From: a virus
UHGV virus genome: UHGV-2203451
DNA length: 37,884 bases
Direction: 5' to 3' (one strand)
Shown: piece by piece, positions 3,001 to 9,000 of the stretch
Position numbering within the stretch: position 1 is the first letter of the stretch
Layout of the letters: each line of letters begins with the position of its first letter
Position numbers: made by a program

Positions 3001-6000
3001 CGAATGAATCCATCAAGGAACTGTTCATTATAACTTTTGGCTATCTGATAACATCCAACAGCATCAATGCGTTCGATTGTGAATTGCCAACTATCACCGC
3101 AGTTAAAATTCCATTTCCAGCCGTATTTCTGTGCGAATTCATCATATTCAACATTTGCAGGTTCAGAACAGAAAGATAAAAATCTAAATGTTGGTTTTGG
3201 CCTTAGATGGTTAAGCCCGGCACCTCTTGGGGTATATATGGCATTATCTCCATTCCCACCTTTTGTTTTAACTGTAAGGTGACTTAAACCAAATTCAATA
3301 TCATATTTTGTTGGCGCAGCAAAAACAAAGCCGTCTTTTGGTGATGTGGTATTGTCAAACACAATAACCGTTTCACCCTGCCCATCACCGCATATATTTA
3401 TGGGTGGTATATTAACAGGACCAGTCACATTGTATATTCCTTTTGGCACATATAGTTTTCCGCCCTCTCCGAGAGCATTCGCTGCAGCAATAAATGCTGG
3501 CGTATCATCGATAATATTATCCCCTTTCGCCCCAAAATCTTTAACATTATAAACGTCACGCATCTTATCCTGGAACGTTCTGTATACTGCCCCAGAACCA
3601 TACTGAATAAACCAACCAAAACCACCAACAACTCCGGCAATTGCAGCATCGACATAATTACGCATTGAGCGATTATTTACAGCGTCCTGCTCAAGTGATG
3701 GATCTGCAAGGTTAGAAATTCTGTTTTGCTTTGCATCGTAATATTTTGCAAGCAAAGATGGTTTCATCAATGCACGTCTGAACCACCCAAAACATTGCTG
3801 GATCAGCATCGTCAGGTAGTCAAAGGCATCTTCATGCACTTCGGGAAAAAACTTTCCCTGATTGCGAAGATCTGTCTCCTGTACTACATCAAGCACACGA
3901 TCTATCGTAATTCGCCATCCAGTAGCAAGCGGAGACGGAAGAACCACAGAACCGCCACTATAAGTGCCAGCTCCAGTTACTGTATAACCGGTATCCAGAA
4001 CCAATTCTGTTACGTTCCCGTTCAGGTCAGACACCTGAACAACCAGGTCGGATTTTTTGAAAATGCGGAAAGTATACGGAAACGATGTCGTAACTCCGTT
4101 ACCGGTGTATTCGTTGTGGTCAACTTCGGTTGAGACCGTCATGTTAAATCTCCAGATAGTCGCAGCACCCGTTGCGCCGCATATCTGGTTATTCTATTAC
4201 CTGGAAAACCACATATGGATAGAAAGGCTGTAAATACGAATAGATATTACCTTTCAGGTAATTTGCAAAACGTGCTGGATAGCAAACAAATTATTTGCTA
4301 CTGTATAAATATACAGTTATTGCATGGAGAAGATAAGATGCAGCAGTATCACTATCCACTGGAAGACGGATTTACCGAAAGGATTCACACGCCGGGAGGC
4401 GTCAGGTCACTGGTGGAGGGATCGCACTTGATGAAATTACTCCGGGATCTCGATAAGGATGGATTTAATGTCGATGGCCCACTTGCCGAACTGACTGCAC
4501 TGATTAACTACGTCACCAGCTCACAGATGTCTATGCAGGATCTGCAAACACATCTCGACTATTGTGCCGAACAATTACGAAAACAAACCCGGTAAATTTA
4601 AAGGCCGCAAGAGCGGCCATTAACAGTCGTAAAATTCCGGGTCCCACAAACTTGCATCGCGCGGCATGGATTCTAAATTTTTCAGCCGCAAAATTCTGTC
4701 ACACTCGACAAGAAGTTTTTGTTTTTGTTCGTCAATTTCTACTTTTTTGTGTGCTGGCTCATCCCAGTAATCCAGAAGAAACGCATGTCGCTCAGACGTT
4801 ACAAGATAAATCACATACACATCACTGGTTGGTATTTTTTTATGCTTGTTGGTGGTCTTGTCTTTCTTCCCGGATGCCCAGTTTTTCCAGCATTGTTCCG
4901 TACCGCTCTCACCAAACTTGTCAGTATAGTTTCCGATGTTTACGTGAACGTGGCGTATGTGATATTCCAGCATCTCTTTCGGTGGATCCCGAAACAGAGT
5001 GTCCTTTCCGAAATCCTTATGATGACCGTAGCGCCAGTGATCTATGAACGCGTTTTTGATAGGTATTAGCTCAGGGTCCTTCCCAAAAATTCCAGGGTGA
5101 ACCAACCCCTGGAATTTATTCAGCATCGTCGTAGAGCTCCTGAGCCATATCTTCGGCAGTGCGTGCAAACATCCTGCGCGAGATTGCATGAGATTTCTCG
5201 ACGGACATCTTTGGGACCTCATGCATAACATTTTTGGGAGTTGTGTAATAGCCTATTACAATTTTCACACCTGACTTATGATTAATATCAGCATAATATA
5301 CTTCTTGTTCAGACGTTTCACGACGAACATAATCTGCCAGTTTTCCACATTTAAATTCCCCTCCCTGATGTTTTAAAATCTCCTCAACTGCACTATTTTC
5401 AGTGAAATACCGAATAAGAAATTTCTGTCCAGACTCTTCAGCATGAGGTATAACAGTATTATTGGAAGCCCGAACAATGGCCTTACTCAATATTTCATGG
5501 TCTTTATTTTTTTCTGATTTCCTCAAATGCTGCATTACTGTAGCTCTCTTCGTGTTCACGGGCACCCCCAACTACCTCTAGGGTAAACATTCTATCGAAA
5601 GTATACGCATACTGGCAAAAAAATAGGCAGGTATTTTCTGAAATGGGATCAATCAAACCACATAGGGTTGAAATAACGTGAGTTATGCATTTATTATTAC
5701 CTTTGCGGTAAATTTACATCGCACTCCTCTTGTGCCATAGTAATCGGGCACTGGAAAAATCCAGTGCCGGGATTGGCGTCCCGGATTACTAAAAGGCGCA
5801 TTCACCGCGCAAGCGGTTTTTTTATGCGTATAGCACGGCCACATTCGTATTATGGTGGGCTGTGTGGGGGCACCGAAAGGTGCGCCGGGTCCTTTTAGCC
5901 GGTTACGCCAACCCTGCACAGTTCACCACCAACCGATTGGCGTCGGTAGTGGTGATTAACCAGACTAAAAGGTAACCACTATGACAGCTACAAAAAGCAC

Positions 6001-9000
6001 GTCCATTTTTTCTTTCGAATCCCAAGCCGATATACGGGTAATCGTCATTAATGGTGAGCCATGGTTTATCGCTTCAGATGTTTGTCGGGCTATAGGCATA
6101 GCAAATCATCGAGATGCTGTTCGAAAACTTGATGATGATGAGAAGGGCGTCGCTTCAACCGACACCCCTGGCGGTGAGCAAGAATCGATCATCATCTCCG
6201 AGTCAGGCCTCTACACACTGATCCTCCGCTGCCGCGACGCAGTGACACCAGGCACTATCCCCTACCGCTTTCGTAAATGGGTTACAGGTGAGGTTCTTCC
6301 TCAGATCCGCCGCACCGGAAGTTACATTAAAAACTCGCTCCCGCAGGAAGAACGCATAAAGATGGTTGCCGACCAGGTAGCCAACGCCACAGCATCAGCA
6401 GTGATGCAGGCAATGAAGATAGAGAACAAAACCTACAGTGCCCCACTGAAGCCCGGCTACCGCAGCCTGATTCATTCGCCGTCTGGTGTTCTCGGCCTGA
6501 CGGAGAACTCACTGCTGATGAATCTGCTGAACCAGTTACAGGAAGACGGGCACGACGTATCGGGCGCGGCGGCGGAGCTGACCACCATGTTCTGCTACAT
6601 CGTCGGTGTGAGCAAGTGCCTGCGTGATATCCAGACGCACGCGGAGTACATCAACGACAAGGCTGGGTTCTTCTGACGGGCGGCGGCACATGGATGTGCC
6701 TTTAAAATAATCATTGGCGATGTGATGTAGATTCGCGTAATATTACCTTACGGGTAAGAAAGCGTTTTTAATCTTCCCTTCAAAACGCGTCCTGTAGCCA
6801 AACATGGGAGGACGAAATGAAAACAAATACAACAAGAAAAGCGATGCCATACATTATCCCAGAAGCAGATTTCGACAGAAAACTGAACATGTCTGAGAAG
6901 AACACTAGTCACACCGAAAGCTACTTAGCGAAAGGTGTGGTTGATTTCGTTCTTCCGGGATTCACAACACCTTATGGTTATCGCCTTGTAAAATCTTGTA
7001 ATGGCGATCATTACAGAATGATTACTACCAGCGATACTCCAGAAACGGTGTATGCGGTTAAGTTAATCTTTCGGGAAGATATCGTCGAAGCTAAAAGAAC
7101 ATGTACGCAGATCATGGTATGGCGTACGCCTAATGTTATTCATGACCGTGCTGTTCATGGTTTGCCTCAGATTTTTTTTCAGTTCTTCCTAGAGCAATAT
7201 GCGATCGTTGTATCTGATGAGCAACAAACAATCGATGGGAGAAGATTCTGGGAAAGAATGATTTCTTGGGCTATAAACACCCCGGGATATAATGTATACG
7301 TTTCAGATGGCTCTGAAGAAGATAGACCTCTTAGCTTCATGACATCATGGGATGATTTCTATAGCCAGTGGGCTGATTTCTGTTGGGGCAGTGATAAAGA
7401 TGTGCATACCCACAGACTACTGGTTATAAGCAAAGATAAACTGCATTAATAGAAGCCCGCAGCGCGGGCTTTTTTGTGGACGAAACAAAAGTCAGTGCTA
7501 CACTCATTGACGCCACATTGAGGTGGCTTATAGATGGAAATTTCACAATGAAAAAAGCATTTGCTGCACTGTTCGTTTTGTTGTCTCTGGTAGCTTCAAC
7601 TCAGGCCTTTGCCGGTCGTTGTCAGCACGACAGCGATACTGCTGCTGACGGCTCCCGCTGCGGTGGGCGTTCTGCGGATTCCCGCCCGGGTGGCGGTGGC
7701 ATTCGTTAAAAACAAGGCCGCGAAAGCGGCCTGTTTGATCACTGTGCAGTTTTCGCTGATCGATTTTCAGCTCTAAATTCAAGAACCGTTTCAATATTTC
7801 TTTCCTTCAGCATATCAATAACATTTTTATTCATTTGACTATCACTGGTTAATAACTGGTAAACGTTGCTTCTCTCTTTATCAGAGTTTTCTTTAACAGC
7901 TGCTTTGCATGCCAAATGCTTATTGAAATTTTCTACATCGCTAGTACAGGAATTTACGGCTGCTGATGAAATATCAGACGCTGAAGAAACACCATCATCC
8001 AAACGTTTTATAGCATTTTCTATACATGAGTTAAGGGAATAAACGACAACTGAGCGATACCCTTCAGACGCACACCATTCTAAATTTCTTGAAGGATCGA
8101 GTGGTTTTACTTCGCTGGATTGAATTAACTTGTCAAAAACTGACTTATATTCAATCTGTTTTTTATCTATAGCCCATACTTCAGTAGCTGATTTATAATT
8201 CCCCGTATGCCTATTAACATCAAATCCATGTTTTATAAGCAAATCTGCCCATGAAAGATTTATTGATTCATTGTTATGAGGCCATTTTCCTGTCAGAACC
8301 GCCCCCATAGACCCCATATATCCGCCATATGATGGTATAGCACCATGGCTCAGTAACTTCTCAGCAACCACAGGGCAATTAATTACATAAGAGGCGTAAA
8401 GCCCATTCCATAAAGCCCCTCTATAGTAATCGCCACGATTAGGTTCTTTTAAGTCGATAGCCTTTGATAATTGTTCACACGTTTTGCATGCATCAAAGTT
8501 ATCCTTATTGCATTGCAATGAACTGGCAGCTGTAGGATTTACAGAGACTATTGAAAGCACTATGCCAAAAAACAAATTTATTTTTTTCATCCTATTTCAT
8601 CTGCTCTTCAACTTTATTTAGTAACGGTGATATTGCCCACAGGTTCTGAAAAGGTAGCATTTTACGGACCGCGTGGGTTTGCTGGCTGTCAAATTCTCCG
8701 TTAAGTACACCATTCGCAACCGTCGCGGCATCACCGCCAAGATCAAAGGTAGGACCAAGTAAAGCACCAATAGCATTACGACTCTGAAACCTTGATACCG
8801 GAGGCGCACCAAACATCGCGCCAAGACCAAACCTACCGCCGCTTATGTTCTCAACGGTATTCAGCGGCTCAGAGAGCCAGCCAAGCATTCCGCCCCGGTC
8901 GATCCCCTCTTTCACAAGGTTATTCCAGCTGTAGTCAATATCGCGACCGCTTAACTTCTGTTTCATCATATAGACCATTGAGCCAAGCGCAATCGTGCCA

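Follow-up and report, generated by a model that had tools for sequence, protein, structure and literature searches.

One Ant-type module in two differently wired candidate antirepressors of an epsilon15-like Escherichia coli phage

The virus genome UHGV-2203451, a stretch of 37,884 nucleotides that we analysed whole and call the window, encodes two proteins with similar C-termini: an 85-residue protein whose gene follows a LexA box, and a 231-residue protein with an N-terminal BRO-N domain whose gene follows a long structured leader. This arrangement raises the question of what the shared part does, and whether the two proteins feed into one lysogeny switch or are aimed at different repressors. 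By alignment, the 85-residue protein is an orthologue of Ant, the antirepressor of Salmonella phage SPC32H, and the window also encodes a homologue of the SPC32H repressor, Rep. We favour two differently controlled antirepressors acting on one repressor, Rep, and give this reading a probability of about 0.6. A megablast search with positions 4150-6800 returned Uetakevirus (epsilon15-like) temperate podophages of E. coli, including phiV10, TL-2011b, vB_EcoP_ZX5, EC.W1-9 and HEMP4, and on these matches the window is a phage of that group. The features on which the argument turns are the following:

4299..4318, plus strand: LexA box TACTGTATAAATATACAGTT, overlapping the ant promoter region and lying 22 nucleotides upstream of the ATG
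4338..4595, plus strand: small ant, encoding an 85-residue bare Ant module; SPC32H Ant orthologue by its matches to PDB 5d50_E and phrog_450
5981..6676, plus strand: fused ant, encoding 231 residues, with BRO-N at residues 17-107 (nucleotides 6029-6301), a linker, and an Ant-like module at residues 150-226 (nucleotides 6428-6658)
33455..34039, plus strand: rep, encoding Rep, a 194-residue repressor and the presumed common target of both Ants

A module shared by the two proteins

Both open reading frames (ORFs) were confirmed, at 4338-4595 and 5981-6676. BLASTP aligned residues 2-75 of the 85-residue protein to residues 150-223 of the 231-residue protein without gaps, with 31 of 74 positions identical (42%) and an E-value of 8e-16, and the Smith-Waterman score of 161 compares with 26.6 +/- 4.4 (maximum 61) in 5000 shuffles (z = 30). 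The original prediction had described a C-terminal module of about 50 residues carried on two different N-terminal scaffolds. The likeness is real, and the 231-residue protein does have a BRO-N domain (PF02498, E-value 2e-21, 76.7 bits against a gathering cut-off of 25.6), but the match extends well beyond the last 50 residues. Because it covers almost the entire 85-residue protein, that protein has no scaffold of its own and is the bare module.

A tree built from the modules of phages of E. coli, Salmonella, Klebsiella and Enterobacter placed small and fused types in separate clades, and the following residues are invariant between the clades (small-Ant numbering): L8, H17, P19, G21, L25, S29, M32, L35, D41, G42, V45, A50, E51, T53, Y58, H72 and Y75. 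In-frame nucleotide identity between the two window modules is 48%, and only 31% at third codon positions, and the small and fused modules of a single phage are 40-41% identical in the E. coli and also in the Klebsiella phages. Given this divergence, the separate clades and the equal within-phage identities in two host groups, the two copies are, as judged from these comparisons, old paralogues and not a local duplication. Chance similarity and a recent, functionless local duplication, both of which the original prediction had raised as dangers to its claim, were rejected on the shuffle score, the third-position identity and the clade separation; both copies are also conserved across genera, and we put this explanation close to nil.

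The small protein aligns over residues 2-84 with residues 3-85 of the crystallised Ant chain (PDB 5d50_E, E-value 4e-47), described in entry 5D50 as the 'Anti-repressor protein' of the Rep-Ant complex of SPC32H, and it matches phrog_450 with an E-value of 9e-48. It is 97.6-100% identical to its counterparts in E. coli Uetakevirus phages and 84-88% identical to those in Salmonella phages, with SPC32H Ant at about 88%; by these alignments it is the orthologue of SPC32H Ant. PDB entries 5D50 and 5D4Z belong to the SPC32H Ant-Rep antirepression system. In that phage Rep reportedly stays uncleaved during the SOS response and is inactivated by the small, LexA-controlled Ant. The SOS control proposed for the 85-residue gene finds support in its upstream DNA: the box TACTGTATAAATATACAGTT has the core CTGT-N8-ACAG at 4301-4316, matches 18 of 20 positions of the LexA-box consensus (TACTGTATATATATACAGTA), and aligns with the box upstream of SPC32H ant. 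A public gene call of 126 residues for this protein (P0026; window 4215-4595) extends across the LexA box.

Residues 150-226 of the 231-residue protein also match the crystallised Ant chain (5d50_E, E-value 1e-13) and phrog_450 (E-value 4e-36). PHROGs labels phrog_450, the family of both the small Ant and the fused module, as 'unknown function', and no Pfam or NCBIfam model covers the module in searches of both databases. Pfam found neither a P22_AR nor a KilAC (PF03374 ANT) domain in either window protein, and Pfam, NCBIfam and PDB gave no match for them beyond BRO-N and 5d50, the Tum and GfoA sequences themselves not being part of that comparison.

Functional evidence for the fused protein comes from phage ZX5, whose ORF4 is 100% identical to the 231-residue protein and whose Rep is likewise identical to that of the window. 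Overexpression of ORF4 during ZX5 infection brought the prophage titre down to 1e6 per mL, from 1e9, and reduced the rep transcript by 75% (Li et al. 2022, PMC9782041). The only lysogeny-related proteins named in that paper are ORF4, ORF12 and ORF21, and its text contains neither SPC32H nor LexA, so ORF4 is not connected there to the 85-residue gene or to Ant.

The original prediction had also anticipated that the module might sit on other scaffolds, as it does. A profile search run exhaustively over 1.84 billion representative proteins recovered it in only 62 clusters, either free-standing (about 85-97 residues) or C-terminal to one of several N-terminal domains:

BRO-N: P0022, P0035 and P0077
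AntA: P0021 and a 228-residue protein of HEMP4
Phage_pRha: P0033 and P0072
ORF6N: P0064
P22_AR_N: a 314-residue protein of TL-2011b, the third copy in that phage and the only place where P22_AR_N was seen

TL-2011b and HEMP4 each carry three copies of the module. The third copy of TL-2011b (L004, 31060-32244) has an Arc-like gene and a match to the antisense sar RNA (31231-31298) ahead of the P22_AR_N-module protein, and by this gene order the locus is a P22 immI-type cassette. The third copy of HEMP4 (L006, 1600-2387) is the AntA-module protein; it lies next to int, at the end of the early-left operon, and is preceded by an Rfam sRNA-Xcc1 match (2298-2387). A 97-residue free-standing copy occupies the same operon end in another E. 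coli prophage.

Among E. coli phages that have one Rep in common, N-terminal parts are swapped (BRO-N 100% or 65-67% identical, AntA in HEMP4, P22_AR_N in TL-2011b, none in L003) and the module stays 94-100% identical; between the two BRO-N versions it is 99-100% identical. Fused-type modules also occur as stand-alone proteins of 95-97 residues. One further protein, P0014, is a chimera of a small-type N-terminal half and a fused-type C-terminal half, encoded at the canonical LexA-box position beside the tailspike gene in a prophage locus without a BRO gene. Because it occupies that position, the small and fused clades appear interchangeable. The pairing of a LexA-box small ant with a fused ant behind isrK and C4 RNAs recurs in prophages of several genera (L011-L013), and in L015 Rha replaces BRO-N.

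The repressor, its candidate operators and the RNA leader

The window repressor matches chain A of the same crystal over its full length (PDB 5d50_A, E-value 4e-42) and is on this evidence a homologue of SPC32H Rep, with 42% identity overall, 54% in the N-terminal and 38.5% in the C-terminal domain. The same Rep, without change, is encoded by phiV10, ZX5, EC.W1-9 and others. The window contains 14 copies of an inverted repeat, TTACC-N5-GGTAA, where 0.85 would be expected, and SPC32H has 18. The window copies start at 4247, 5572, 5697, 6743, 24038, 27231, 27249, 30992, 31054, 33000, 33337, 33385, 34097 and 34159 and precede many transcription units. Since it clusters around rep in both phages, between rep and cro and a short way downstream of rep, we regard the repeat as the probable Rep operator; window-type and SPC32H-type phages would then seem to share operator specificity despite the 54% identity of their Rep N-terminal domains. 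The copies nearest to rep and to the two ant genes are:

33337..33399: cluster in the rep-cro intergenic region, with further sites at 34097-34111 and 34159-34173
4247..4261: between the tailspike gene and small ant; conserved in SPC32H, Kp4865-1 and L011
5697..5711: abutting the -35 element of the isrK/C4/ant promoter; position kept in 6 of 6 aligned loci, the L014 copy being degenerate

From the position of the last two sites, transcription of the two antirepressor units may likewise be under Rep control, much as C1 acts at P1 immI.

The long structured leader that had been noted ahead of the 231-residue gene consists of an Rfam isrK-type RNA and a C4 antisense RNA:

5713..5741, plus strand: promoter-like TTTACA-17-CATAGT, ending 7 nucleotides before the isrK 5' end; conserved in the aligned loci
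5748..5823, plus strand: isrK-type RNA (Rfam RF01394, 76.7 bits against a gathering threshold of 50)
5773-5779 and 5789-5796, plus strand: candidate isrK decoy sites a1 and b1, complementary to C4
5804-5817, plus strand: stem of the isrK intrinsic terminator, followed by a T run, at the 3' end of isrK
5848..5933, plus strand: C4 antisense RNA (Rfam RF01695, 77.7 bits against a gathering threshold of 45)
5891-5898, plus strand: C4 segment b' CCUUUUAG, predicted single-stranded, pairing with b1 (5789-5796) and b2 (5965-5972)
5905-5911, plus strand: C4 segment a' ACGCCAA, predicted single-stranded, pairing with a1 (5773-5779) and a2 (5937-5943)
5937..5972, plus strand: C4 targets a2 (5937-5943) and b2 (5965-5972), with exact complementarity over 7-8 nucleotides

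Target b2 covers the Shine-Dalgarno sequence of fused ant, 9 nucleotides ahead of the ATG at 5981. A C4 RNA was also detected in six related loci, and across the seven loci examined the C4 loops and both target pairs change together, giving five different site combinations:

Window and TL-2011b: a' ACGCCAA with targets TTGGCGT; b' CCTTTTAG with targets CTAAAAGG
HEMP4: a' as in the window; b' CCACTTAG with targets CTAAGTGG (the HEMP4-type b' is also given as CCACUUAG)
Kp4865-1: a' GTCTCAA with TTGAGAC; b' CCTTTGTAG with CTACAAAGG
L011: a' AGACCAA with TTGGTCT; b' as in the window
L014: a' CTGTGAA with TTCACAG; b' GCGGTTACT with AGTAACC

This covariation is strong comparative evidence that the C4 pairing is functional and defines distinct specificities, as in P1 versus P7, and we infer that C4 blocks translation of fused ant in this phage. 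An icd-like coupled ORF is lacking: none overlaps the start of ant, and the sole ORF of the leader, at 5824-5898, ends 82 nucleotides upstream of the ATG. This ORF of 24 codons (MRIARPHSYYGGLCGGTERCAGSF) starts immediately behind the isrK terminator and stops within the C4 b' loop, a position that recalls orf45 of Gifsy-1. In L015 (10001-10960, P0033), a public 319-residue Rha-module call spans the isrK and C4 RNAs; its true start is probably the methionine of MNTSLSTV, about 49 nucleotides after C4.

These elements can be assembled into a model in which a non-cleavable Rep would be switched off by antirepressors built on one helical module of about 80 residues with the SPC32H Ant fold. DNA damage would remove LexA and allow small Ant to be made, and an Ant tetramer would then split the Rep tetramer into dimers and take it off DNA, by analogy with the SPC32H crystal complex, in which an Ant tetramer engages two dimers of Rep and disrupts the Rep tetramer that binds DNA (PMC9638917). 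At the second gene, the promoter would drive an IsrK-like RNA, with most transcripts ending at the isrK terminator and read-through yielding C4 RNA. The exposed C4 segments would pair with a2 and b2, and with b2 covered at the ribosome-binding site the 231-residue protein would stay untranslated in the lysogen. Sites a1 and b1, duplicated in IsrK, may serve as a decoy for C4. Any fall in free C4, whether through excess IsrK or because a superinfecting or newly infecting genome is present before C4 accumulates, would release the second antirepressor without an SOS signal.

One repressor or other targets

The original prediction had proposed that the shared module is the repressor-binding part and provides two differently regulated inputs into one switch. 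This proposal appears essentially right, on the homology to the Ant-Rep pair, the co-distribution with Rep and the ZX5 phenotype; that the fused module binds window Rep as Ant does is our inference from these observations. Across 50,697 phage records, those bearing the module (34-35) are essentially those with an SPC32H-type Rep (36), and every listed module record is also in the Rep list. Identity to the window copies runs as follows:

E. coli phages: Rep 98.5-100%, small Ant 97.6-100%, fused module 95-100%
Enterobacter phage Tyrion: Rep 77.8%, small Ant 85.5%, fused module 77.6%
Klebsiella phages: Rep 44.8%, small Ant 58-63%, fused module 53.7%
Salmonella phages: Rep about 42%, small Ant 84-88%, fused module absent

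The fused antirepressor might instead be aimed at the repressors of other elements, such as heteroimmune epsilon15-like phages or unrelated co-resident prophages, and so serve cross-induction or anti-immunity without being an input into the phage's own switch. There is precedent in Salmonella, where antirepressors can inactivate non-cognate repressors in trans; FsoA of Fels-1, for one, targets the repressor of Gifsy-2 and plays no part in inducing Fels-1 (PMC3121763). The low identity of the paralogues, just 40-42%, would fit such a division of targets, as would the name 'putative anti-immunity protein' that the phiV10 record gives to the gene. Yet the phage collection shows the module only together with an SPC32H-type Rep, it is kept at 94-100% identity among same-Rep phages while the N-terminal domain and the regulatory cassette are swapped, and a fused-type sequence sits at the primary LexA-controlled position in P0014. 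Tight C4 silencing also fits best with a product that would endanger its own resident prophage, as in P1, and we consider an exclusive action on other elements unlikely.

A different objection concerns what the module does rather than whom it meets. Within the fused protein it might mainly oligomerise, making a tetrameric BRO-N DNA-binding regulator or co-assembling with small Ant, and not bind Rep alone. SPC32H Ant is described as a tetramer (PMC9638917), and the residues invariant between clades could be core or tetramer contacts and not Rep contacts. BRO-N is moreover a DNA-binding fold, and the modelled N-terminal domain of the 231-residue protein is matched by Foldseek to a baculovirus BRO-like domain (4ye7) and to Mbp1. 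A purely oligomerising module accounts poorly for the stand-alone fused-type proteins, which have no DNA-binding domain, for the five unrelated N-terminal domains found on the same module, and for the ZX5 ORF4 phenotype, which is that of an antirepressor; we regard this explanation as rather improbable.

Several observations weigh against a common target. The tracking of Rep identity by the fused module, itself a point in favour, is seen over only three lineages, which are moreover separate phylogenetically. E. coli and Salmonella phages keep 86-88% identity in small Ant, yet their Reps share only 42%, and 38.5% in the C-terminal, Ant-binding domain; because small Ant is so much better conserved than Rep, Ant sequence is a poor reporter of Rep specificity. 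The paralogues themselves are only 40-42% identical. AlphaFold2 models are of modest confidence, with predicted local distance difference test values of 58.7 (full 231-residue protein) and 73.4, and a Foldseek search of the models against PDB did not recover 5d50, returning only BRO-N/APSES-like folds for the 231-residue model. In ZX5 the ORF4 protein was tagged and overexpressed during infection, and the phenotype leaves its target undefined (PMC9782041).

The fused gene is, moreover, dispensable judging from its distribution. In phiV10 (L001, about position 4300) a 16-bp frameshifting deletion (ATCTGCTGAACCAGTT) inside the fused module splits the gene into PhiV10p23 and p22, and tblastn likewise matches O157 typing phages 9 and 10 in these two pieces, suggesting that they share the deletion. 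The gene is absent from PAS61, BUCT711 and BUCT554 and from all Salmonella phages among the matches listed. By this pattern it is an accessory input, outside the core switch.

Action of both paralogues on the resident Rep remains the reading we favour, because of the tracking of Rep by the module, the stand-alone fused-type proteins, the P0014 chimera and the ZX5 phenotype. The dormancy switch then most likely has two separate triggers, DNA damage and antisense-RNA release. More tentatively, and with some doubt, we suggest that one portable Rep-binding module has been placed in several sensory circuits (LexA/SOS, IsrK-C4, the P22-type Arc/sar cassette and the end of the Rep-controlled early operon), which would create a multi-input OR gate and a second, RNA-encoded immunity specificity. 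The N-terminal domains (BRO-N, AntA, Rha, P22_AR_N, ORF6N) would then add something besides repressor recognition, for example delivery to DNA.

Each component is already known, namely SPC32H Ant and Rep, the BRO-N 'anti-repressor' and C4/IsrK control. What appears unreported in the literature searched is a BRO-N protein ending in an Ant domain, the shuffling of that domain onto at least five scaffolds wired to several circuits, and the covariation of C4 specificity across these phages. The analysis joins two unconnected literatures, one on the solved small Ant of SPC32H and the other on BRO-N 'anti-repressors' annotated in E. coli phages and overexpressed in ZX5. It provides a testable function, Rep binding with a crystal template, for an unnamed C-terminal domain of BRO-N, AntA, Rha, P22_AR_N and ORF6N proteins, and, as repressor recognition in this family appears to need no N-terminal domain, the role of those widespread domains can be asked directly. 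It also predicts an SOS-independent route of induction or anti-immunity in prophages common in pathogenic E. coli.

The locus in its phage and among known systems

Both ant genes are flanked by the tailspike gene on one side and the virion structural genes on the other, and SPC32H ant has the same site next to its tailspike gene. Positions 4230-6680 are 100% identical to a prophage of E. coli APEC O18, whose RefSeq record labels the 85-residue Ant a 'hypothetical protein' and the fusion a 'BRO-N domain-containing protein'. Parts of this stretch match 998 of 5426 complete genomes, mostly the isrK/C4 portion alone, and at least 80% of it is found in only 41. The neighbouring features are:

1560-4142, minus strand: tailspike gene
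4620-5126, minus strand: ORF that the RefSeq record of identical DNA calls 'type II toxin-antitoxin system YafO family toxin', the sole source of the name
5116-5559, minus strand: partner ORF, overlapping the 4620-5126 ORF
6817-7449: ORF of 210 residues downstream of fused ant, matching phrog_1349 and no Pfam family, with its own TTACC-N5-GGTAA site at 6743-6757
24375-24448: transfer RNA (tRNA) gene (Rfam, 73.3 bits), in the region equivalent to the tRNA-Arg annotated in SPC32H

The two minus-strand ORFs form a cassette (4620-5559) between the ant genes, without a match in PADLOC, Pfam, NCBIfam or PDB searches and missing from phiV10 and ZX5. Because other epsilon15-like prophages hold SocA/Panacea or a different YafO gene at the same spot (L011, L020), the site looks like a cargo hot spot.

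Among characterised proteins, ZX5 ORF4 shares with the window an identical 231-residue protein and an identical Rep, and its overexpression reduced lysogeny (PMC9782041). The likeness to SPC32H lies in a small ant next to the tailspike gene, with the same LexA box and about 88% identity, in full-length Rep homology, and in the same clustering of TTACC-N5-GGTAA at rep-cro. SPC32H, epsilon15 and the other Salmonella phages listed carry the small Ant only, whereas the window adds a BRO-N-fused paralogue with predicted RNA control, and its Rep is only 42% identical to that of SPC32H.

The immI region of P1 and P7 is laid out as a1-b1 / c4 / a2-b2, with the c4 antisense RNA followed by icd and ant. 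Both C4 RNA and the C1 repressor regulate P1 Ant (PMC8201110). The window resembles this system in having a C4-family RNA in the leader of an antirepressor gene, with two exposed segments facing upstream a1 and b1 and downstream a2 and b2, in the placement of b2 over a ribosome-binding site, in loop and target sequences that differ among relatives to give separate specificities, and in a main-repressor site at the promoter, here a candidate Rep site. It differs in that there is no icd-like coupled ORF and b2 overlies the Shine-Dalgarno sequence of ant directly, and in that the upstream sites lie in a terminated IsrK-type small RNA. The repressor-binding part is, in addition, unrelated to P1 Ant, and the window phage, a podovirus, has a repressor of another family.

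Gifsy-1 likewise pairs a small LexA-controlled antirepressor, GfoA, with a larger antirepressor-like protein whose gene follows IsrK and a C4-like RNA, STnc1160 (PMC4825925; PMC3121763). There, short IsrK activates translation of the downstream antirepressor AnrP and induces the prophage (PMC4825925), apart from the usual SOS trigger. No counterpart of the coupled upstream orf45 is apparent in the window, where the only leader ORF ends well short of the ant start. GfoA and AnrP show no detectable similarity to each other (E-value 8.2), AnrP consisting of ORF6N and an unrelated C-terminus. We therefore rejected module sharing as a general trait of paired LexA- and IsrK-controlled antirepressors, and the shared module appears specific to the epsilon15-like group.

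Domain shuffling among phage regulators of the BRO-N, KilA-N, AntA and Rha types has reportedly been described. The proteins discussed here have in common with such domain-shuffled 'antirepressors' the joining of interchangeable N-terminal domains to variable C-terminal domains; they differ in that here the C-terminal domain can be assigned to a solved and experimentally proven stand-alone antirepressor.

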